DNA of 24,757 bases, taken from a virus. Lineage: Duplodnaviria; Heunggongvirae; Uroviricota; Caudoviricetes. Location: the IMG/VR virus record IMGVR_UViG_2648501797_000006, positions 1-24,757 of that record. One strand, given 5' to 3'. The stretch's first letter is position 1, and the number at the start of each line of letters is the position of its first letter. The notes beneath the pieces are model-generated. The model was not told the origin of the DNA and did not search any database. It saw only the letters and a program-made list of their open reading frames with translations. A program made the translations under genes and the position numbers. Below are positions 7,596-23,389 of the stretch, in pieces.

Positions 7596-7889
7596 ATGAA
7601 AAAAATGTTGTTTTCTGCCGCTCTGGCAATGCTTATTACAGGATGTGCTCAACAGACGTTTACTGTTGGAAACAAACCGACAGCAGTAACACCAAAGGAA
7701 ACCATCACCCATCATTTCTTCGTTTCGGGAATTGGACAGGAGAAAACTGTTGATGCAGCCAAAATTTGTGGCGGCGCAGAAAATGTTGTTAAAACAGAAA
7801 CCCAGCAAACATTCGTAAATGGATTGCTCGGTTTTATTACCTTAGGCATTTATACTCCGCTGGAAGCGCGGGTGTATTGCTCACAATAA
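7596..7889 (+). CDS. bor: Bor lipoprotein (lambda bor homologue)
   Basis: MKKMLFSAALAMLITGCAQQTFTV...ICGGAENVVKTETQQTFVNGLLGFITLGIYTPLEARVYCSQ is near-identical to lambda Bor as recalled; lipobox LITGC; AGGA upstream of ATG 7596. Confidence 0.9.
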   Translation: MKKMLFSAALAMLITGCAQQTFTVGNKPTAVTPKETITHHFFVSGIGQEKTVDAAKICGGAENVVKTETQQTFVNGLLGFITLGIYTPLEARVYCSQ

Positions 7890-9261: not shown

Positions 9262-10314
9262 TTATTTCCCCACCAGTTCACTTACCTCTTTCACCGTCTG
9301 ATTAAACCGCTCTGACTCAAGTTCAACACCTAACGCCCGACGCCCCAGCGCCATTGCTGCTTTTATTGTGGAACCGGATCCCATAAAGAAATCAGCAACC
9401 AGATCACCAGGTCGACTACTGGCATTGATTATTTGCCGGAGCATATCCGCCGGTTTCTCGCACGGATGTTTACCCGGGTAGAACTGAACGGGCTTATGCG
9501 TCCAGACATCGGTATAAGGCACAGAGACTGATACGGAGAAATAGCGCCGGAGAGATTTAAACTCATCCAGCAATTCAGAATATTTGCGATTCAGTGAATC
9601 ATAAGATGCCACCAGCTGGTGGTGTGGTTGTTCCAGTTGTTGTTCCTGAAACTTCTCTGCCGCTATACGGGAAAACAGTGCCTGTAACTTCCGATAGTCA
9701 GCCTCATTCGGCAACTGCCACTGACTGGCACCAAACCAGTGGGAAACCATATTTTTCTTATCTGTGGCTTCGGCAATTTGTTTTGCCGTTATACCCAGTT
9801 CGGCACGAGCATCCCTGAAATACGATATCAGCGGTGCCATTATGTGCTGTTTGAGTTCCCTTTCTTTTGCCGCATAGTCGTCACTTTTGCCGCGATATGG
9901 CCCCTGGTAATGTTCAGCAAACAGAACGCGCTCTGTGGCAGGAAAATATGCGCGCAGACTTTCTTTATTACACCCATTCCAACGTCCGGACGGCTTCGCC
10001 CAGATGATATGGTTAAGCACGTTGAAACGTTCACGCATCATGATCTCAATATCAGATGCCAGGCGATGCCCACAGAACAGGTAAAGGCTTCCGGCAGGTT
10101 TTAACACCCGCCAGAACTGGGCCAGACAGTGGTCCAGCCACTTAAGGTAATCTTCGTCCCCTTTCCACTGATTGTCCCAACCGTTAGGTTTCACTTTGAA
10201 GTAAGGCGGATCGGTAACAATCAGGTCAATGGAATCATCAGGCAGGGACTGAATAAAATGCAGGCAATCAGCGTTGATTAAATCAACACTGTTTATTTTT
10301 ACAGTATTTTTCAT
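9262..10314 (-). CDS. Orphan DNA methyltransferase (DPPY motif, beta-class N6-adenine or N4-cytosine)
   Basis: IVTDPPYF near the N-terminus and SAM-binding FFMGSGST near the C-terminus (motif IV before motif I). No partner endonuclease recognised nearby. Confidence 0.85.
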   Translation of the reverse strand: MKNTVKINSVDLINADCLHFIQSLPDDSIDLIVTDPPYFKVKPNGWDNQWKGDEDYLKWLDHCLAQFWRVLKPAGSLYLFCGHRLASDIEIMMRERFNVLNHIIWAKPSGRWNGCNKESLRAYFPATERVLFAEHYQGPYRGKSDDYAAKERELKQHIMAPLISYFRDARAELGITAKQIAEATDKKNMVSHWFGASQWQLPNEADYRKLQALFSRIAAEKFQEQQLEQPHHQLVASYDSLNRKYSELLDEFKSLRRYFSVSVSVPYTDVWTHKPVQFYPGKHPCEKPADMLRQIINASSRPGDLVADFFMGSGSTIKAAMALGRRALGVELESERFNQTVKEVSELVGK

Positions 10315-10987: not shown

Positions 10988-12007
10988 TTGGATAAGTTTG
11001 ATGAGATTCATGTAGATATTGAATCTGAGCAGCAAGCCTTCGATTTGCTTGAAAGCTATCTTGATGGTTATGGTTTACCTGACAGTTTAAGTTTCAACGG
11101 ATGGCCAAACCTTACCATCAGATTAACCGGTGAAAAATTCAACAGATCGCTAACACCTTCAGTTATGAAGGGATTTGTTGAAATGCAAGCTCAAATCAAC
11201 AAATCATATGCCCTTGCCAAGTACGGTGTCCCTGACGTCCGCAAACTGACCAAAGAAGAACTTGATGCCCTAGAAATAGAAGTTACGGTAGAACAGGGTT
11301 CTTCAATAGTAGAAATCAACATTGATGGCTTTTTAACCAAACTCACACAGGAACTTGTTGGTAAAATGAACGCAACTGAGATCATGTTTACTGTTCTCGG
11401 CGCAGCAGTCATCTGGGGCGGAGTAACAGTATTTAAACGGTTCTTGGACAACCGTAAAGATATTCGCCTTGCAGAAATTGCTAAGGATGGAGAGAAAGAA
11501 CATCTCCGGACTATGCAGATCATGAGCGAGCAAGAAACTAAACGCCTGCGGGTTATTTCAGAAATGATTGCGGAAAAACCACTTCTCGATAACATGGACC
11601 GTATGTCGTATGACGCTAAAACCCAAATGGTCAAATCCTTTGTGCGTTCAGATAACGCTCAAATTGATGGCGTTACTATTGATTCTGAAATGGCGAAAGA
11701 GTTGGTTACGAATGCTCGTAGACGTTCATCAGAAATGAGGATTGATGGTATTTACCGAATTGAAGAAGTCAATAATACTGACCCAGAGAGTTTCAAAGTT
11801 AAGGTCCGACGCGTAGATACCGACCAACGTCTAACCTGCGTAGTTCAGGATGTTTTCCTTGATGAATCCGGAAACAAAGAAGCATTGCAGCGAGCTGAGT
11901 GGGAAAGAAAGCCTGTACATTTGAGCATTAACGCAAAACACGTCGATGGTGACATTAAGTCAGCAGTAATTCTCTATGTTCGAGATGTGGAACAAAAGCC
12001 CGAGTAA
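10988..12007 (+). CDS. Hypothetical membrane-anchored protein, 339 aa, no family recognised (candidate moron)
   Basis: Only start is TTG at 10988, with GAGGA 7 nt upstream; no in-frame ATG for about 60 codons although the N-terminus reads protein-like. One central hydrophobic segment (IMFTVLGAAVIWGGVTVF) in a charged, helix-rich sequence. Visibly AT-rich versus flanks (not computed). Converges on Q, stops 14 bp apart. Confidence 0.6.
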   Translation: MDKFDEIHVDIESEQQAFDLLESYLDGYGLPDSLSFNGWPNLTIRLTGEKFNRSLTPSVMKGFVEMQAQINKSYALAKYGVPDVRKLTKEELDALEIEVTVEQGSSIVEINIDGFLTKLTQELVGKMNATEIMFTVLGAAVIWGGVTVFKRFLDNRKDIRLAEIAKDGEKEHLRTMQIMSEQETKRLRVISEMIAEKPLLDNMDRMSYDAKTQMVKSFVRSDNAQIDGVTIDSEMAKELVTNARRRSSEMRIDGIYRIEEVNNTDPESFKVKVRRVDTDQRLTCVVQDVFLDESGNKEALQRAEWERKPVHLSINAKHVDGDIKSAVILYVRDVEQKPE

Positions 12008-12021
12008 TCGGGCTTCAATAA

Positions 12022-12414
12022 TCAATCTTTAATTTCGGGGTCCATCTCTAGACTAATTTCCAGCATCGATAGGCAGCCATCAATAAACCCCTCAGCCATC
12101 TGTATCTCAATGCGTATTAGTTTCTCATCCTTTTTACGAGCCTTGGCGAGCTTTCTTTTAGAGATACCGTATAGGTAATGGGCAACAAGAAGCGAATGTT
12201 CGTCCGGCCTTTTTTGCCTTAGACGAGCAAGACAACCTTCAATAATTAATGCATCACTATCTGAACATGCCTGACGTGTTTTGCTTGTATAGGGAAGAAG
12301 CCCTTTAAACCCAGCAGCTATAGGAGAATAGTCTACTCCTGAACTATCACTCGCCGCCCATGCTCCCCAACGATCCAGAACCATTTGAATATCACGCATC
12401 AACTTTCTCCACAA
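12022..12414 (-). CDS. Late-gene antiterminator Q (phage 82/21-type Q family)
   Basis: MRDIQMVLDRWGAWAA...IAAGFKGLL... matches the Q antiterminator family as recalled; true start may be the MRDIQ methionine 5 codons in. Confidence 0.8.
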   Translation of the reverse strand: MWRKLMRDIQMVLDRWGAWAASDSSGVDYSPIAAGFKGLLPYTSKTRQACSDSDALIIEGCLARLRQKRPDEHSLLVAHYLYGISKRKLAKARKKDEKLIRIEIQMAEGFIDGCLSMLEISLEMDPEIKD

Positions 12415-12416
12415 AA

Positions 12417-13412
12417 TCAGGCCAGCACGCCAATTGCCAGCGCACGATCGATAAAACGAAATATCAGCTCCAACTGAGAGCCATACTTTTCTTCAAATAC
12501 CACGGTATCCGCATGCAGCTCGTCGTGATGCTTTCTGCACAAAGGCAACACAAAAAGGTCATGCGCTTTTGTTCCCATTCCACCCTGACCGTAACCTATC
12601 AGGTGGTGGGGATCATCAGCGGGCTTTCCACAACATGCACACGGCTGTGTCTTAACCCAGCGCGTGTACTTTTCATTAACCCAGCGGCGACGTTTTGGGC
12701 GTAACATAAAAGACTCCGGCGACTCCGGATCCACTTTCAGCGCCAGCACCTTTTTCGCCTTATCCTGGATGATGCTGGTGGCAGGAACCGAAGGCACAAG
12801 GTCACTTTCCCGGGTGACAGACGGCACAACAGGCTTCGGTAATCTCAGTGCCTTACGGGCTGCACTTTCCGGTAAGGCATCCGCCAGGTCATTACGAATC
12901 AGCCACCAGCACAGTTCCGGCATTGTCACAACGTGACTGTCATCAAAACCGAGATCCCGACGCACAACAGACAACACCCAGCGGGCACAGTTATCCGTTG
13001 CCATTGATTCCAGCCGTTCCGTGAACTGATCGCGCAGCTGGTTATCGCAGTGCCAGCACAGACGGATTGCACCCGGAGCGTGTCGCATTGTGGTCATGTT
13101 CTCGCTGTGCCAGTCGGAATGAGGCCACTGGCAGCCTTTTTCACGAAGTAACCAGCTTTCAAGACATTCCACGCCACCAGCACGACGGATCACTGCCTCA
13201 TTGCGGAACACGGCCCGAACGGTAGGATCATCCGCCAGCGGTTGTGATGCCGCCGGAACGGCACCACTGGCGAAAGATGAATAACGTTCCGGCTCAGGCT
13301 CCAGCAGGACACGCCCCTGCATAAACAGGGGCATCAGCTCTGAACCTGGTCTGAACAATACGATCCCCATACGCGGGGCAATTTCAGGGGTCAGTAGTGC
13401 TCTCACGGTCAC
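12417..13412 (-). CDS. HNH-motif protein of the nin region (DUF968-like)
   Basis: C-terminal CACCGKPADDPHHLIGYGQGGMGTKAHDLFVLPLCRKHHDELH motif; GTG start abutting the upstream gene. Family name from memory only. Confidence 0.55.
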   Translation of the reverse strand: MTVRALLTPEIAPRMGIVLFRPGSELMPLFMQGRVLLEPEPERYSSFASGAVPAASQPLADDPTVRAVFRNEAVIRRAGGVECLESWLLREKGCQWPHSDWHSENMTTMRHAPGAIRLCWHCDNQLRDQFTERLESMATDNCARWVLSVVRRDLGFDDSHVVTMPELCWWLIRNDLADALPESAARKALRLPKPVVPSVTRESDLVPSVPATSIIQDKAKKVLALKVDPESPESFMLRPKRRRWVNEKYTRWVKTQPCACCGKPADDPHHLIGYGQGGMGTKAHDLFVLPLCRKHHDELHADTVVFEEKYGSQLELIFRFIDRALAIGVLA

Positions 13413-13413
13413 C

Positions 13414-14223
13414 TCAATGTACGGTATCGAGCAGCTTTAACAGCTCAGGGAATCGGGATTCGAAGAAATGCGGCTGCGTCTCGCGCGGATTTGCGGGACT
13501 GGTGATGTTCTTGCCGAACATGCAGCCTTTCGCTGTCAGTGACCAGAATTTTTTGATGTTGTTAATCGCGGTACGGCTGTATCGTTCGCGCTGCTCGACG
13601 ATCCCCAGCTTCACCATCTGGTGATATGCCTGATTAGCTGTCAGGCGGATACCATACTGCTTCAGCAATGCACTCAGTGACAGCGTGGGGCGGCTTGAGC
13701 CATCAGGCGCGTCAGCAGGAGCATCAATGGCATAGCGCGGTGCCAGATTCGGTAAGCCAACAGCCTCCTGGAGTTTCTGACAGGCCCCAAGCACTGAAGA
13801 GTTAGACAGGTTTAACTCCCTGCGCATAAAGTCCAGCAGAATCACTCCAGCCTGCATCTTGTCAGCAGCCTGCCCGGATAATTTTTCCGGTGCGCTGGTT
13901 ACCATATCGAAAGTACGGATCACCTTCAGATGGAATGACGGGCTGATCCACATTGCATAGGCATACACCAGTTCCTTGCAGACATAAGTTCCCCGTTCAT
14001 TTCCCCCATGAATCACACTCACCGGGTCAACACCCAAATTCTGGGTGTTGGTCAATTCATGAACAAGTTCAACAGTTTGTTGGCTGGAAAGAAACTTTCC
14101 TGGCTCCTTGGTTCTGGCATTTGCACCAGATGCTACTGCTGCGCGATGCAGATCGTTCAGGCTGTAACGCCCATAAGCATCACGACGAACTTCAATACCA
14201 TCAATGACCATCAGATTATTCAT
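13414..14223 (-). CDS. KilA-N domain antirepressor-like protein (Ant family)
   Basis: N-terminal MNNLMVIDGIEVRRDAYGRYSLNDLHRAA...KEPGKFL has KilA-N character; ATG at complement 14221..14223 follows AAGGAG. Confidence 0.7.
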   Translation of the reverse strand: MNNLMVIDGIEVRRDAYGRYSLNDLHRAAVASGANARTKEPGKFLSSQQTVELVHELTNTQNLGVDPVSVIHGGNERGTYVCKELVYAYAMWISPSFHLKVIRTFDMVTSAPEKLSGQAADKMQAGVILLDFMRRELNLSNSSVLGACQKLQEAVGLPNLAPRYAIDAPADAPDGSSRPTLSLSALLKQYGIRLTANQAYHQMVKLGIVEQRERYSRTAINNIKKFWSLTAKGCMFGKNITSPANPRETQPHFFESRFPELLKLLDTVH

Positions 14224-14242
14224 ACTTCGTTTCTCCTTTTGC

Positions 14243-14633
14243 TCAGGCGGCTGCACCCGCCGTTTTCTCGTACTTACTGATAGTGATCTCGACCTTCCCT
14301 TCCGGGATAACCGGTCCCCACTCCACCAGCATTCTTTTCACCTGACTGTCGTCTTCCCACACACCCGCGTGGGTCAGGGCGTCAAACAGCGCCTTGTTAT
14401 AGTTGTCCAGATCGCGGCTCCGGTTATCCGGAAGGAAACAACACGATCTCCACTGAAGCAGGTGCCGACGTTGGTTTCGGCAGACGACGTAACTGCTCAA
14501 CTATTGCTGCGCACGCCGCGCTCTGGAATTTTCGCCCCGCCGCGCTTATCAGGCTCTTACCAGCAAACGCCCCTTTGTTGGGGTGTCGCCAGTACGTGTT
14601 CACGCTGGGCGGGAAAGGCAGGATCAGCTTCAT
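14243..14633 (-). pseudogene. rusA: rusA Holliday-junction resolvase split by a 1-nt frameshift
   Basis: ORF 14424..14633 (MKLILPFPPSVNTYWRHPNKG...VEIVLFPSG-stop) is the RusA N-terminus; ORF 14243..14500 (+1 frame) carries ...FLPDNRSRDLDNYNKALFDALTHAGVWEDDSQV..., the RusA catalytic C-terminus. Shift maps to the TGTTGTTT run near 14431..14445. Confidence 0.75.
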
Positions 14634-14956
14634 ACTTTCAGGCCTCTCTCATGTAACCAGTGAGTTGCACGCAGCCTTGCGTTTTCCTCACCGGCAAGCA
14701 GTGAGCGGATAATCCCGACCGCCTCGCTGTCGTCGTCCTTCACCGCGGTATGAAGCGTGATCCCCCGGGCCACACCACGCTTTATCGTGATGACGCCTTT
14801 TTTCTCCAGTGCGCGAAGATGCTCCACCGCTGCATTCACTGAACGGTATCCCAGCATGGTTGCCACCTCCTGATTGGTTGGCGGAAAGCCACGTTCTTGC
14901 TGGTAAGAAATCAGCATATCCAGCACCTGCTGCTGACACTGAGTTAACGTCGTCAT
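14630..14956 (-). CDS. LexA N-terminal DNA-binding-domain protein (108 aa, no peptidase domain)
   Basis: MTTLTQCQQQVLDMLISYQQERGFPPTNQEVATMLGYRSVNAAVEHLRALEKKGVITIKRGVARGITL parallels the LexA winged-helix domain; the S24 domain is absent. Start overlaps the upstream stop as TAATG. Confidence 0.7.
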   Translation of the reverse strand: MTTLTQCQQQVLDMLISYQQERGFPPTNQEVATMLGYRSVNAAVEHLRALEKKGVITIKRGVARGITLHTAVKDDDSEAVGIIRSLLAGEENARLRATHWLHERGLKV

Positions 14957-15450
14957 TAAGCCCCCACGTAATTCCCTGACAGATACCATTCATCACCCGA
15001 TACAGCGCGCTTGCTGCTTTTCCGTAAGCACCGCTCTCGACGCGCCAGAAAGTTGTTTCGTTCTGGCTGGGAGTGACTTTCACGGAATGCCGCCATCCAC
15101 ACCGTTGCAGCACGACGGTATAAGCCCCTGGACTCCAGCTCTTCAGCCTGGCGGGTCAGGCACAAAATCACCCGGGGATCGTTAGTGCCGACATAGAAAT
15201 TGCGCACAGGTCTGGTTTCACGAACAGGTTGTGGTTCCGGCTCCTGCGCTCTCTCAGTCAGGCGCGGGAAATGTCTGCGTGTATCTCCTTCACAACGGTG
15301 AGCCACATGCCCACTCTGACGTAACTTGCTTGCTGACTGCAGAACGCGCTGCCGTGAGTAACCTGCAAAAGCATCCGCAATGTCTCCGGAAGTACAGCCC
15401 GGATGGGCTTCAATGAATTTCTGAACGTCATTCAAAAGACTCATGATCAC
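14956..15450 (-). CDS. Putative PerC-like transcriptional regulator
   Basis: C-terminal LESRGLYRRAATVWMAAFRES...RRERCL resembles the PerC/Pch signature as recalled; N-terminal half unassigned. Confidence 0.45.
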   Translation of the reverse strand: MIMSLLNDVQKFIEAHPGCTSGDIADAFAGYSRQRVLQSASKLRQSGHVAHRCEGDTRRHFPRLTERAQEPEPQPVRETRPVRNFYVGTNDPRVILCLTRQAEELESRGLYRRAATVWMAAFRESHSQPERNNFLARRERCLRKSSKRAVSGDEWYLSGNYVGA

Positions 15451-16388
15451 CCCCTGAATCCTGCCGGGATCTGGCTGTAGTCCACGTTGTCGTAACTGGC
15501 TTTGAAGTACGGGTCTTCACGTTTTTCTGTGTGCGTGCTGACGGACGGCGATAAGCGCAGGGAAAGCTCATCCCATTTTTCCCGCAACTTCGACGGGCTG
15601 AGCACGTTACGGCACCAGAACGGATCGCGGCTGACGCGGCTGTACATCTCGCAGATTTGTTTGTGAGTACGACCATCCTGCACACACATCAGGCGAATTT
15701 CGTTTGCCCATGCTGTCCAGTTCGGTTCTTTGGGACGAACCACCTCGCCGTCACATTCGGCGGCCTGCTCGTACAGGGCAATGATTTTTTTCCAGAGCCA
15801 CTGTGCGCAGGTCAAATCATCCTGCGTTCCCCACTGGCGCTTTTTAGGGCTGAATACAACCGCATCAGGATGGCGAGTTAAAAAATCCTGTTCAGCCGTC
15901 TGCGTGTCCGGTTGCGAAGCGTCCGGACGAGAAGGTTTTTTATCTGACGGATCATGTTTTGATTTTACTGACGGATCCCCGCCAGATTCTGACGGGTGAA
16001 AACCCGCTTTTTTGCCAGATTTCGACGCATCAAATTTTGACGTGTCAGATTTTGATGCGTCAGATTTTGACGGGTCAGAATCTGACAGTTGAGAAAATGC
16101 CGCTGCCTGAAGCTTCGCAACGTTAAGCTGATAAACATTCGACGCATTGCGGTTACCCTGGCGACGCGCCTTACGCGTTAACCAGCCTTCTGCTTCCAGC
16201 CGTGCGATAGCCGTTCTGACGGTACTCATCCCCGCGCCAATCTGACGGGCAATAGTTTCAATTGATGGCCAGCACACACCTTCGTCATTACTGAAATCAG
16301 CCAGGCGGGCCATAATTGCCACGCTGGATAATTTCATGCCTGACGCAGCGCAACCATCCCATACATAGCCGGTTAATTTAGTGCTCAT
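15447..16388 (-). CDS. Replication initiator (O-like function) with an N-terminal HTH domain
   Basis: N-terminus ...CWPSIETIARQIGAGMSTVRTAIARLEAEGWLTRK is a winged-helix replication-protein domain; the central low-complexity SDSDPSKSDASKSDTSKFDASKSG is encoded by tandem DNA repeats. Confidence 0.7.
   Translation of the reverse strand: MSTKLTGYVWDGCAASGMKLSSVAIMARLADFSNDEGVCWPSIETIARQIGAGMSTVRTAIARLEAEGWLTRKARRQGNRNASNVYQLNVAKLQAAAFSQLSDSDPSKSDASKSDTSKFDASKSGKKAGFHPSESGGDPSVKSKHDPSDKKPSRPDASQPDTQTAEQDFLTRHPDAVVFSPKKRQWGTQDDLTCAQWLWKKIIALYEQAAECDGEVVRPKEPNWTAWANEIRLMCVQDGRTHKQICEMYSRVSRDPFWCRNVLSPSKLREKWDELSLRLSPSVSTHTEKREDPYFKASYDNVDYSQIPAGFRG
15940..16095. repeat. Tandem iteron-like repeats (about 8 copies, ~15 bp period) inside the replication gene: probable ori
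   Basis: Repeated (C/T)CAGA(T/A)TTTGACG units, for example tcagattttgatgcg, tcagattttgacggg, tcagaatctgacagt, ccagattctgacggg. Boundaries approximate (within a few nt). Confidence 0.6.
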
Positions 16389-16736
16389 GACCGACCTCTA
16401 TTTCCCTGAATTTACGACGAAACTGTTCGAGCGGGCTGAAGCACTCATGCTCATAGCCTTCACGGAGGTAGATAACCCGTTGTGTTTCCGGCTCCCAACG
16501 AATGACTCTGACGGGCACTCCGTAGTGATCTTTGAACCAGCGGTTAACTTGTCGCAAAGGACTGTCTCCTTCTGCCGGTTGAAATCCCCCACAGCCCACT
16601 CAGCAAAGCTGTGGGTTACAATTTCCCTGTCACCTGGTACATTTACTGCATAGCAATACTCCACCTTCGCTTTTCCACCCGGTACAGGAAGCGCAATCAG
16701 TTGCGAGCGACGGTAGTGTGTTGTTAAACTGTTCAT
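16378..16736 (-). CDS. Hypothetical small protein, possibly split by a +1 frameshift at a G5/C5 tract
   Basis: ORF 16398..16736 has a protein-like N-terminus then a Ser-rich tail; ORF 16378..16599 (+1 frame, GTG start) has a protein-like C-terminus ([37 protein letters not shown]...). Frames cross at ccccc, 16586..16590. Confidence 0.35.
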
Positions 16737-17347
16737 GCGTTAGTTTCTCCACAACCAGAAGCAATCGACGCCACGACGCCCGGAGCTGCACACTCGCGGG
16801 CGTCATTACTTTCTGAAACGCAAAAAATTTTGTAGACAAGTGCTGCATGCTCCTGCAGCTTCGAAATTGAGAGGTACAGCTCGTCGTTAATTGCTGTCTT
16901 CTCATGCGGTTCCACTACACCGTCTTCGATTGCCGAACGAATCTGTCTGGAATAACTGCCAATCTGTTCAATGACTTCCAGCAGGCGCTGGTTAATATCG
17001 GCGTTGTCCACATCCTCGACGTCAGGAAGAGACACAAAGACGCCATTTGCAGACTGCGCCACAGCGTCAGCAATGAAGTGAGTTCCACCAGCACGTTGCA
17101 AAATCATTGCCCATCCCAGCGGGAAAATCTGATCGCCATCGGCACGAAGGCGGTTAAATAATGCGTTTTCTGTTACATCCAGCCAGTCAGCTGCTTCAGC
17201 GTAACCACCCGGCAACGCTGCGATAGTTTTTCTGACAGCTTTCACGTACCACTCAGGCTGTTTTTCTACTTTCCAGTGATGCTTACCCACGGTTAGCCTC
17301 ATCGTTCTGTGGTTTCTGTTAATCGATTTATCCATTAGATTTTTCAT
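16733..17347 (-). CDS. CII-like regulatory protein (YdaT/CP76-like, 204 aa)
   Basis: Sits directly downstream of cro; start MKNLMDKS at complement 17345..17347 overlaps the cro 3' end. Family assignment from memory, not verified. Confidence 0.45.
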
Positions 17348-17528
17348 AAAGCTCAGGTTTAAATGGCAACCGTCCGCAAGTTCTATATGCAGCTTCTGCT
17401 GCACGTCCTTTTGGAATTAACTGGCCCGGACGGTTTCGCCACTGATAAACGGCTTCAGTTGTTATGCCGAAAAAAGCAGCAACTTTCTCAATACTGCCGA
17501 AGTAGCTTTCGATATCGTCAGTTGTCAT
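17328..17528 (-). CDS. Cro-like HTH regulator (YdaS/DicC-like, 66 aa)
   Basis: Small HTH protein (...VAAFFGITTEAVYQWRNR...) divergent from the cI-like gene; GGAGGG 5 nt before the ATG. Confidence 0.65.
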   Translation of the reverse strand: MTTDDIESYFGSIEKVAAFFGITTEAVYQWRNRPGQLIPKGRAAEAAYRTCGRLPFKPELYEKSNG

Positions 17529-17625
17529 ACGCCCTCCAAACTAAGTTTTATTAGATGCTAATTACAAATCTATCTTTGGTCAATAAAAACTAAGATTACT
17601 TAGCAATTCAAGAAATGGTGCTCCT
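17529..17625. promoter_or_regulatory. Divergent immunity-region promoter/operator (OR-like)
   Basis: 97-bp gap between cro-like and cI-like genes with two AACTAAG motifs in near-palindromes: ctaagttttattag (17541..17554) and ctaagattacttag (17590..17603). Candidate leftward -35 TTGACC (complement 17579..17584) and -10 TAGCAT (complement 17555..17560). Confidence 0.55.
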
Positions 17626-18252
17626 ATGGAAACGGTTGGTCAGCGTATAAAAGCTCTGAGAAGAGTTACCGGAACGTCCCAGAAAGAATTGGGTAAATTT
17701 TGTGGAGTAAGCGACGTTGCTGTGGGGTACTGGGAGAAAGACATCAATACCCCTGGTGGGGAGGCACTTTCGAAATTAGCGAAGTTCTTCAATACGTCAA
17801 TAGATTACATTCTTTATGGTGCTGAGTTTGAAGGCAAACTCGTCACAAACATGCGCAGAGTTCCTGTAATATCGTGGGTTCAGGCTGGGCAGTTTACTGA
17901 GTGCAGGGCAGCAGAAGTGTTTAGTGAAGTGGACAAGTGGGTAGATACATCATTAAAGATTGGTGATAACTCATTTGCATTAGAGGTTAAAGGTGACTCC
18001 ATGACTAACCCTAATGGCCTCCCAACAATACCAGAAGGCGCAACAGTGATTGTAGATCCAGATGCAGAACCTCGTCATGGAAAAATAGTCATCGCTCGAC
18101 TTGATGGAACAAACGAAGCTACAGTAAAAAAATTAGTCATCGATGGCCCTCAAAAGTTTTTAGTGCCATTAAATCCTCGGTATCCCAACATCCCTATCAA
18201 TGGTAATTGCCTTATCATTGGTGTAGTCAAAGGAGTTCAATACGAACTCTAA
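17626..18252 (+). CDS. cI-like prophage repressor (HTH-XRE plus S24 LexA-like peptidase domain)
   Basis: N-terminal HTH (QKELGKFCGVSDVAVGYWE) and C-terminal autocleavage domain with GDSM serine and a downstream lysine (VKKLVIDG). Confidence 0.85.
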   Translation: METVGQRIKALRRVTGTSQKELGKFCGVSDVAVGYWEKDINTPGGEALSKLAKFFNTSIDYILYGAEFEGKLVTNMRRVPVISWVQAGQFTECRAAEVFSEVDKWVDTSLKIGDNSFALEVKGDSMTNPNGLPTIPEGATVIVDPDAEPRHGKIVIARLDGTNEATVKKLVIDGPQKFLVPLNPRYPNIPINGNCLIIGVVKGVQYEL

Positions 18253-23313: not shown

Positions 23314-23389
23314 TGGTGCCGATAATAGGAGTCGAACCTACGACCTTCGCATTACGAATGCGCTGCTCTACCAACTGAGCTATATCGGC
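23314..23389 (-). tRNA. thrW: tRNA-Thr (anticodon CGU), 76 nt with encoded CCA
   Basis: Reverse complement reads GCCGATATAGCTCAGTTGGTAGAGCAGCGCATTCGTAATGCGAAGGTCGTAGGTTCGACTCCTATTATCGGCACCA: D-loop AGCTCAGTTGGTAGAGC, anticodon loop TTCGTAA, T-arm GGTTCGACTCC. Confidence 0.9.

Follow-up and report, generated by a model that had tools for sequence, protein, structure and literature searches.

A phage-encoded LexA DNA-binding domain without its protease: a candidate RecA-insensitive regulator carried as an optional cassette by lambdoid prophages of Escherichia coli

The 24,757-nucleotide virus record IMGVR_UViG_2648501797_000006, referred to at its full length as the window, contains a gene for a small LexA-like protein of 108 amino acids (MTTLTQCQQQV...KV), which is the subject of this study. 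The host element is a lambdoid prophage inserted at the tRNA-Thr gene adjoining proA, and a 2.2-kb segment (positions 14200 to 16400) is 100% identical to part of E. coli strain 123636. On the minus strand, a PR-like promoter is followed by cro, ymfL, a DUF4222 gene, a replication gene, a PerC-like gene, the LexA-like gene, and rusA, and then by a KilA-N gene, a DUF968 gene, Q, a late-region methyltransferase gene, and the lysis and head genes (Table 1). Rfam and tRNA scans found nothing besides the tRNA-Thr attachment site.

Table 1. Features of the LexA-like locus and of the prophage around it (positions in the window)
Feature	Position	Strand	Basis or remarks
LexA-like gene (PHROG 362), 108 aa	14630..14956	-	Winged-helix domain, linker, and two-helix tail; no S24 protease
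LexA-type winged helix-turn-helix, residues 1-69	14750..14956	-	AlphaFold2, pLDDT about 89
Recognition helix, residues 39-52 (SVNAAVEHLRALEK)	14801..14842	-	Alignments to E. coli LexA
Two conserved helices (74-88, 93-103), residues 74-103, proposed dimerization tail	14648..14737	-	AlphaFold2
TAATG stop/start overlap, PerC-like/LexA-like	14954..14958	-	Sequence
ATGA overlap, LexA-like stop TGA/rusA start ATG	14630..14633	-	Sequence, ORF coordinates
PerC-family (YfdN-like) gene, 162-164 aa	14956..15450	-	Pfam PF06069, PHROG 1324
Replication-initiator-like gene (HTH_36/DnaD_N), heads the overlapped gene run	15447..16388	-	Pfam, annotation
rusA (Holliday-junction resolvase), pseudogene	14243..14633	-	Frameshift, one extra T at about 14433
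PR-like promoter TTGACC-17-TAGCAT	17555..17583	-	Promoter scan, consensus match only
cro-like gene	17328..17528	-	Annotation
cI-like repressor gene with S24 domain	17626..18252	+	Annotation
Strong SOS box CACTGTTTATTTTTACAGTA, codons 3-9 of the late-region methyltransferase gene	10287..10306	.	22.4 bits
Late-region N4/N6 DNA methyltransferase gene, downstream of Q	9262..10314	-	
KilA-N gene	13414..14223		Window copy, without the SOS box seen in some relatives
339-aa hypothetical gene, convergent to Q, between Q and the late genes	10988-12007	+	
iss (bor-like serum-survival lipoprotein) gene, beside the lysis genes	7596-7889	+	
tRNA-Thr (CGT) beside proA, prophage attachment site	23314-23389	-	tRNA scan

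The LexA-like open reading frame (ORF) can also be read as 119 amino acids from an upstream ATG; MTTLT is the start of the protein in all homologues and in the annotation by the Prokaryotic Genome Annotation Pipeline (PGAP). The original prediction, made from the DNA letters, held that the protein closely parallels the LexA winged helix and lacks the S24 autocleavage domain, and profile searches bore out both points. Pfam PF01726 (LexA_DNA_bind) aligned with residues 1 to 65 over model positions 1 to 65 of 65 (E = 2.6e-19; 69.2 bits versus a cutoff of 23.7), and the same type of search gave no Peptidase_S24 match in the protein, which ends at residue 108. The NCBIfam lexA equivalog model, TIGR00498, scored 70.5 bits, under its cutoff of 110.95, with an alignment that spanned model positions 1 to 91 of 203 only. 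The top sequence matches in the PDB were the E. coli LexA DNA-binding domain (1LEA; E = 6.6e-16) and full-length LexA, and BLASTP aligned E. coli LexA at 43% identity across 90 residues (E = 9e-22). The match to phrog_362 covered positions 1 to 106 of 106, tail included (E = 1.7e-59). Judged by their scores, these profile matches and that of the PerC-like protein described below are far beyond chance.

In the genome that is identical across the 2.2-kb query region, the protein is WP_001545197.1, "LexA repressor," and the family already bears the labels "transcriptional repressor" (PHROG 362), "LexA family transcriptional regulator" (NCBI), and "LexA DNA binding domain protein" (phage records). 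The LexA-like gene is therefore an already annotated, common phage accessory gene, whose function has been assigned from sequence. Full-text literature searching found no experimental study of the PHROG 362 family, and the PADLOC anti-phage defense libraries gave no meaningful match. A genome-wide locus scan was not informative, since most of what it retrieved were true lexA genes from Halomonas and its relatives, the family itself being represented by one Kosakonia member.

We modeled the protein with AlphaFold2 from a 19-sequence alignment and obtained a mean predicted local distance difference test (pLDDT) score of 84. The winged domain comprises helices at residues 6 to 22, 28 to 35, and 40 to 52 and strands at residues 56 to 58 and 66 to 68, and it superposed onto LexA in the LexA-DNA complex 3JSO with a root mean square deviation (RMSD) of 0.9 to 1.0 Å over 67 to 69 residues, at 50 to 51% identity. 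A linker at residues 71 to 75, modeled with low confidence, leads into two helices (pLDDT about 90 at residues 81 to 100), in which A97 and L101 are invariant. The homologue alignment shows this domain-plus-tail architecture kept down to 38% identity. BlaI/MecI-type repressors have a similar layout, with a winged helix and then helices; however, they show no sequence relationship to the phage protein, whose tail has only two helices, and the full-length Foldseek matches to Rv1846c and MecI were weak (E = 0.008 to 0.05; RMSD, 7 to 11 Å). We also noted database proteins (P0127, P0134, P0141, P0145, P0149, and others) that carry a tandem pair of LexA-type DNA-binding domains without a protease, which is another route to joining two LexA heads.

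E. coli LexA contacts DNA through Ser39, Asn41, Ala42, Glu44, and Glu45 (PMC3091678, PMC13416735). Four of these five residues (Ser39, Asn41, Ala42, and Glu45) are retained in the LexA-like protein, position 44 being Val, and the wing motif Arg64-Gly65-Ile66 of LexA is retained as well. The alignment to LexA (HMMER and BLASTP) runs on through the linker to residue 86 of LexA (LLAGEE versus VAAGEP), so that Ala88-Gly89 of the phage protein aligns with the LexA cleavage site, Ala84-Gly85. In close relatives, the Gly of this pair is Asn, Lys, or another residue, and the motif is gone in distant ones; moreover, AlphaFold2 predicted the aligned segment, at high confidence, to be helical and not strand-loop. 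The resemblance thus has the appearance of a relic left by truncation rather than of a functional cleavage site. Given the absence of an S24 domain, RecA-stimulated self-cleavage cannot inactivate the LexA-like protein, as had been predicted.

Compared with E. coli LexA (1LEA, 1JHH, and 3JSO), the phage protein has a homologous N-terminal winged helix and shares the contacts S39, N41, A42, and E45 and the wing, but it has no S24 protease and dimerization domain and no conserved cleavage site, carries Val44 and a two-helix tail, is encoded by a phage within a PR operon, and scores under the LexA equivalog cutoff. Two noninducible LexA mutants, LexA3 G85D and S119A, and the N-terminal cleavage fragment of LexA are DNA-binding activities that RecA* cannot remove. 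The phage protein would be likewise RecA*-proof, and, as with these variants, SOS induction is predicted to be weakened or shut down. The mutants still dimerize through the LexA interface and have precisely the LexA specificity, and the natural N-terminal fragment is a weak binder that is degraded; the phage protein, in contrast, possesses a tail of its own and differs from LexA at position 44.

The gene upstream of the LexA-like gene matches the PerC domain PF06069 at residues 98 to 151 (E = 1.9e-9; 38.1 bits versus 22.6), and PGAP names it "yfdN: PerC family transcriptional regulator." It resembles the PerC/Pch family, to which the K-12 prophage gene yfdN belongs, in scoring above the Pfam PerC cutoff; it differs in its length, in an extra N-terminal winged helix that is weakly MarR-like in Pfam, and in having the LexA-like gene as an inconstant neighbor. 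The predicted TAATG overlap is real: the PerC-like stop TAA (14958-14956) and the LexA-like ATG (14956-14954) have one base in common in the minus-strand sequence ...GGGGGCTTAATGACGACG (also given as GGGGGCTTAATGACG). Neighboring genes from the replication gene through rusA overlap by one to four bases each. The rusA gene itself is disrupted, since alignment with an intact copy revealed an extra T at gene position 201 that leaves ORFs of 69 and 85 amino acids; the Pfam RusA match is confined to the second half of the window gene, and PGAP flags the copy in the genome identical across the region as "frameshifted."

The promoter scan showed no further minus-strand promoter-like site between the PR-like promoter and position 14630, and the transcript covering the LexA-like gene probably starts at the PR-like promoter. 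Because the gene lies in the overlapping run downstream of the PR-like promoter and upstream of Q, its position suggests that the protein should be a delayed-early product of the PR transcript, made after induction or infection.

We evaluated how constant this arrangement is. The LexA-like gene is present in 2220 of 5426 complete E. coli genomes, and the direct PerC/LexA-like junction is found in 758 of the 5426, as well as in phages SfIV and 2H10. In about two thirds of the E. coli carriers, a Dam methylase cassette separates the two genes. This 650-bp Dam gene also lies between them in mEp460, SfV, SfII, cdtI, Stx2c and Stx2a phages, and others; it is bounded by ATGA...ATGA in mEp460 and, according to the alignment, is exactly absent in the window. 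We then compared 79 prophage loci anchored on the DUF968 gene and found the LexA-like gene missing in 10 of them, 7 of which have the order Rep-PerC-Dam-RusA, with Dam abutting rusA (e.g., L198 and L211). The neighboring genes that were checked are about 98% identical between prophages with and without the LexA-like cassette. Homologues with 38 to 52% identity are preceded by a replication gene, by Dam, by a large C5 methylase gene, or by a small ORF. Downstream, rusA was present in every distant locus inspected, directly in most of them and preceded in two by one small ORF or one inserted reverse gene, and it is followed by DUF968 and Q wherever the contig is long enough.

These results establish that the PerC-like, Dam, and LexA-like genes are independent optional cassettes joined at overlapping start and stop codons and that rusA, not the PerC-like gene, is the constant partner of the LexA-like gene. 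The PerC/LexA-like overlap is incidental because the Dam cassette is missing at this junction and the upstream neighbors vary, so that a dedicated functional pairing of the two genes, which the original prediction described as translationally coupled, is not supported. The presence or absence of cassettes is precise at ATGA or TAATG junctions (L001, L085, L198, and L211), and the overlaps may act as recombination joints.

To a selection test we submitted 149 copies of the LexA-like gene, representing 86 haplotypes. Of the codon variants among them, 65 are synonymous and 30 nonsynonymous, for a ratio of about 0.15 per site. The recognition helix is affected by just two changes, both conservative, and most amino acid changes lie in the linker and tail. 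The gene is therefore maintained by purifying selection.

SOS boxes were scored with a position-weight matrix based on some 20 operators of the E. coli SOS regulon; its scores in bits are approximate. A scan of the prophage for SOS-box-like sites had been suggested as a check, and it yielded one strong site, which lies at the start of the late-region methyltransferase gene and scores above the training median (20.1 bits), the best of 200 shuffles (20.2 bits), and the next site in the window (8.6 bits). The methyltransferase-start box is identical in the Citrobacter phage phiNP, at about 87% local DNA identity. A Klebsiella phage has a different, equally good box (TACTGTAAAAATATCCAGCA on the gene strand), and the encoded peptide is changed; that a box is kept despite the peptide change argues for selection on the box itself. 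Its conservation suggests that the beginning of the late region is under LexA control or contains a roadblock; in the window, host LexA and possibly the LexA-like protein are candidate ligands of the box.

Further strong boxes were found in related E. coli prophages, inside cI-like genes, downstream of rusA, and at the methyltransferase start. In three phages, boxes of 22.9 to 27.1 bits with differing spacers lie within the coding sequence of the cI-like S24 repressor, about 165 to 210 nucleotides from its start (L001 8763-8782 in mEp460, L083 17133-17152 in phiNP, and L089 2836-2855). Another box, TACTGTATTTATGAACAGTG (L006 10765-10784; 22.2 bits), is located directly past rusA and about 90 nucleotides upstream of a KilA-N-domain gene, which may be a LexA-controlled antirepressor-like gene; this box was found in some E. 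coli prophages. We also counted 84 arrangements of CTGT half-sites in 8 divergent loci. The LexA geometry, CTGT-N8-ACAG, came out on top, with 9 occurrences versus about 1.5 expected; 3 of the 9 had spacers rich in GC and scored low with the matrix. A search through everted, direct, and inverted CTGT arrangements with spacers of 0 to 20 showed nothing beyond this geometry in the same loci.

The loci of two distantly related prophages, L090 (7507-7579) and L092 (7476-7580), display a terminator, a -35/-10 promoter, and an SOS box abutting the -10 element (20.5 and 26.9 bits, respectively), followed by a homologous ORF of 75 to 82 amino acids, the LexA-like gene, rusA, DUF968, and Q. The promoter of L090 was a hit of the scan, and that of L092 was read by eye, the scan having found none. 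From this layout, the LexA-like operon is predicted to be under an SOS operator in both loci, which would allow Q to be expressed upon SOS induction without involvement of the immunity region. In addition, L092 contains at 11794-13390, between the methyltransferase and holin genes, late-region genes with Pfam Cas_Cas1 and AcrVA2-like matches.

We tentatively favor the view that the LexA-like gene encodes a RecA-insensitive, LexA-like operator-binding regulator, carried as an optional cassette in the nin-like region. The two-helix tail would replace the C-terminal domain of LexA as a dimerization module, and the dimer would bind palindromic operators with CTGT-like half-sites, either SOS boxes or sequences close to them. 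Made early in the lytic cycle, the uncleavable protein would restore LexA-type repression once RecA* has destroyed host LexA. Candidate targets are phage boxes, such as that at the methyltransferase start in the window, and possibly SOS genes of the host or genes of rival elements that LexA controls. SOS-controlled expression would be expected to come as a pulse or to be shut off during lytic growth. A bolder version of this proposal strikes us as rather unlikely: that about 41% of complete E. coli genomes carry a RecA-proof LexA surrogate, which is expressed from the early lytic operon at the very time when host LexA is destroyed, re-occupies phage and chromosomal SOS boxes, closes the SOS response, and silences functions under LexA control, namely those of co-resident prophages, colicin plasmids, and mutagenic polymerases.

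Several observations weigh against LexA-type operator binding by the phage protein. Its recognition helix agrees with that of LexA at S39, N41, A42, and E45 and departs from it at position 44. None of the 95 family members examined has Glu there, the residue being Val, Ala, Phe, Thr, or Leu; in contrast, 24 of the 30 full-length LexA hits of the same search have Glu at this position. Since Glu44 is replaced family-wide, the DNA specificity may differ from that of LexA. Distant members (e.g., P0236) also lack Ala42 and Glu45, and the box upstream of them is nonetheless a perfect canonical SOS box. If the tail is a dimerization module unrelated to that of LexA, the N8 half-site spacing is not guaranteed either. 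Furthermore, the L092 protein has a much diverged recognition helix, and the box upstream of its gene is a perfect canonical SOS box, which points to host LexA, not to the phage protein, as the ligand.

The distribution of the boxes also counts against this view. Phage phiNP carries boxes without the LexA-like gene, as do 5 of the 10 noncarrier prophages, which hold the same boxes; conversely, four divergent carrier loci (L085 to L088) showed no SOS-like box within 6 kb. The density of boxes is 0.33 per 10 kb in noncarriers (n = 10) versus 0.46 in carriers. A dependence of the phage SOS boxes on the LexA-like gene was not found, as each occurs without the other. From the boxes it is evident that this group of phages is connected to the LexA circuit of the host, which does not by itself demonstrate binding by the phage protein. 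Finally, the box scores carry the approximation of their matrix, and both the operator binding and the expression of the LexA-like family are predictions from sequence.

The closest characterized analogue of the LexA-like protein is gp6 of GIL01 (Betatectivirus), a truncated LexA homologue of 66 amino acids that recognizes a palindrome of its own and acts as an activator of the late promoter P3; its recognition helix is a different one, with Lys38 critical, the site (GaCACAn nTGTGaC) is not an SOS box, and the protein is essential for late expression (PMC6182141). Like the protein studied here, gp6 is a phage-encoded LexA DNA-binding domain without a protease, in a phage with LexA boxes at its promoters. 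Alignment by hhalign related the two proteins with 96.4% probability and 33% identity over 63 columns, whereas BLASTP gave no alignment; this homology at the profile level only argues for independent derivation from different LexA lineages. They also differ in that gp6 lacks a tail and comes from a Gram-positive tectivirus in which it is essential, whereas the coliphage protein has a conserved 40-residue two-helix tail, a near-LexA recognition helix, and an optional gene.

The gp6 precedent raises the possibility, which we regard as nearly as likely as the LexA-like operator-binding regulator, that the coliphage protein is a private regulator that, owing to the altered residue 44 and a new dimer geometry, binds a phage-specific, non-SOS palindrome and activates or represses phage genes (for example, Q, late genes, or methyltransferase genes) independently of the host SOS regulon. 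A truncated LexA homologue with altered specificity that activates a late promoter is exactly what gp6 exemplifies, and the family-wide loss of Glu44, the further divergence of the recognition helix in distant members, and the carriers L085 to L088 without a nearby SOS box are consistent with such a role, as is the location of the gene, always just upstream of the rusA-DUF968-Q block. However, a shared non-SOS palindrome was not found, and the LexA geometry was the only one of the CTGT half-site arrangements to be conspicuous. Moreover, S39, N41, A42, and E45 are exactly kept in the E. coli members, and, given that prophages otherwise about 98% identical differ in having the gene, it cannot encode an essential late activator.

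The constant association with rusA could alternatively mean that the LexA-like protein is an accessory factor of RusA, acting through DNA binding in recombination or repair, for example by targeting or modulating the coupled resolvase. The ATGA overlap and the presence of rusA downstream of the gene in the window and in all distant loci inspected would fit with such a function, but we consider it improbable: rusA is frameshifted in the window and the LexA-like gene is intact, the Rep-PerC-Dam-RusA prophages have no LexA-like gene, modular inheritance can explain the conserved order of the nin region, and winged-helix LexA domains are sequence-specific operator binders.

Still less credit can be given to a regulatory unit of two cotranslated and cooperating proteins, the PerC-like activator and the LexA-like protein. 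The TAATG overlap and the recurrence of the direct junction in E. coli genomes, SfIV, and 2H10 invite this idea; yet the junction is the exact site of the missing Dam cassette, Dam intervenes in most carriers, distant homologues have a replication gene, a C5 methylase, or a small ORF in place of PerC upstream, and every gene of the run overlaps its neighbor. We rejected the pair on account of the missing Dam cassette and the varying upstream neighbors. Least probable of all is a pseudo-substrate or decoy whose linker region docks in the S24 site of LexA, cI-like repressors, or UmuD, or engages RecA*, an idea that the alignment of Ala88-Gly89 with the cleavage site and up to LexA residue 86 suggested and that we rejected as a main explanation because the Ala-Gly pair is not conserved, is lost in distant relatives, and lies in a segment predicted to be helical.

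If the LexA-like protein binds an operator of its own, it would be the second independent case, after GIL01 gp6, in which a phage has adopted a LexA head for private regulation. Whatever the operator, ready-made isogenic comparisons are available in prophages that have the gene and prophages that lack it, their checked neighboring genes being about 98% identical. If, as we tentatively favor, SOS boxes are bound, a common prophage cassette would change the timing and amplitude of the SOS response, and it would affect the induction of rival prophages, including Stx phages carrying the LexA-like gene. SOS-dependent mutagenesis would then be affected in many pathogenic E. coli strains, an effect invisible in K-12, the standard SOS model organism, which is devoid of the LexA-like gene.

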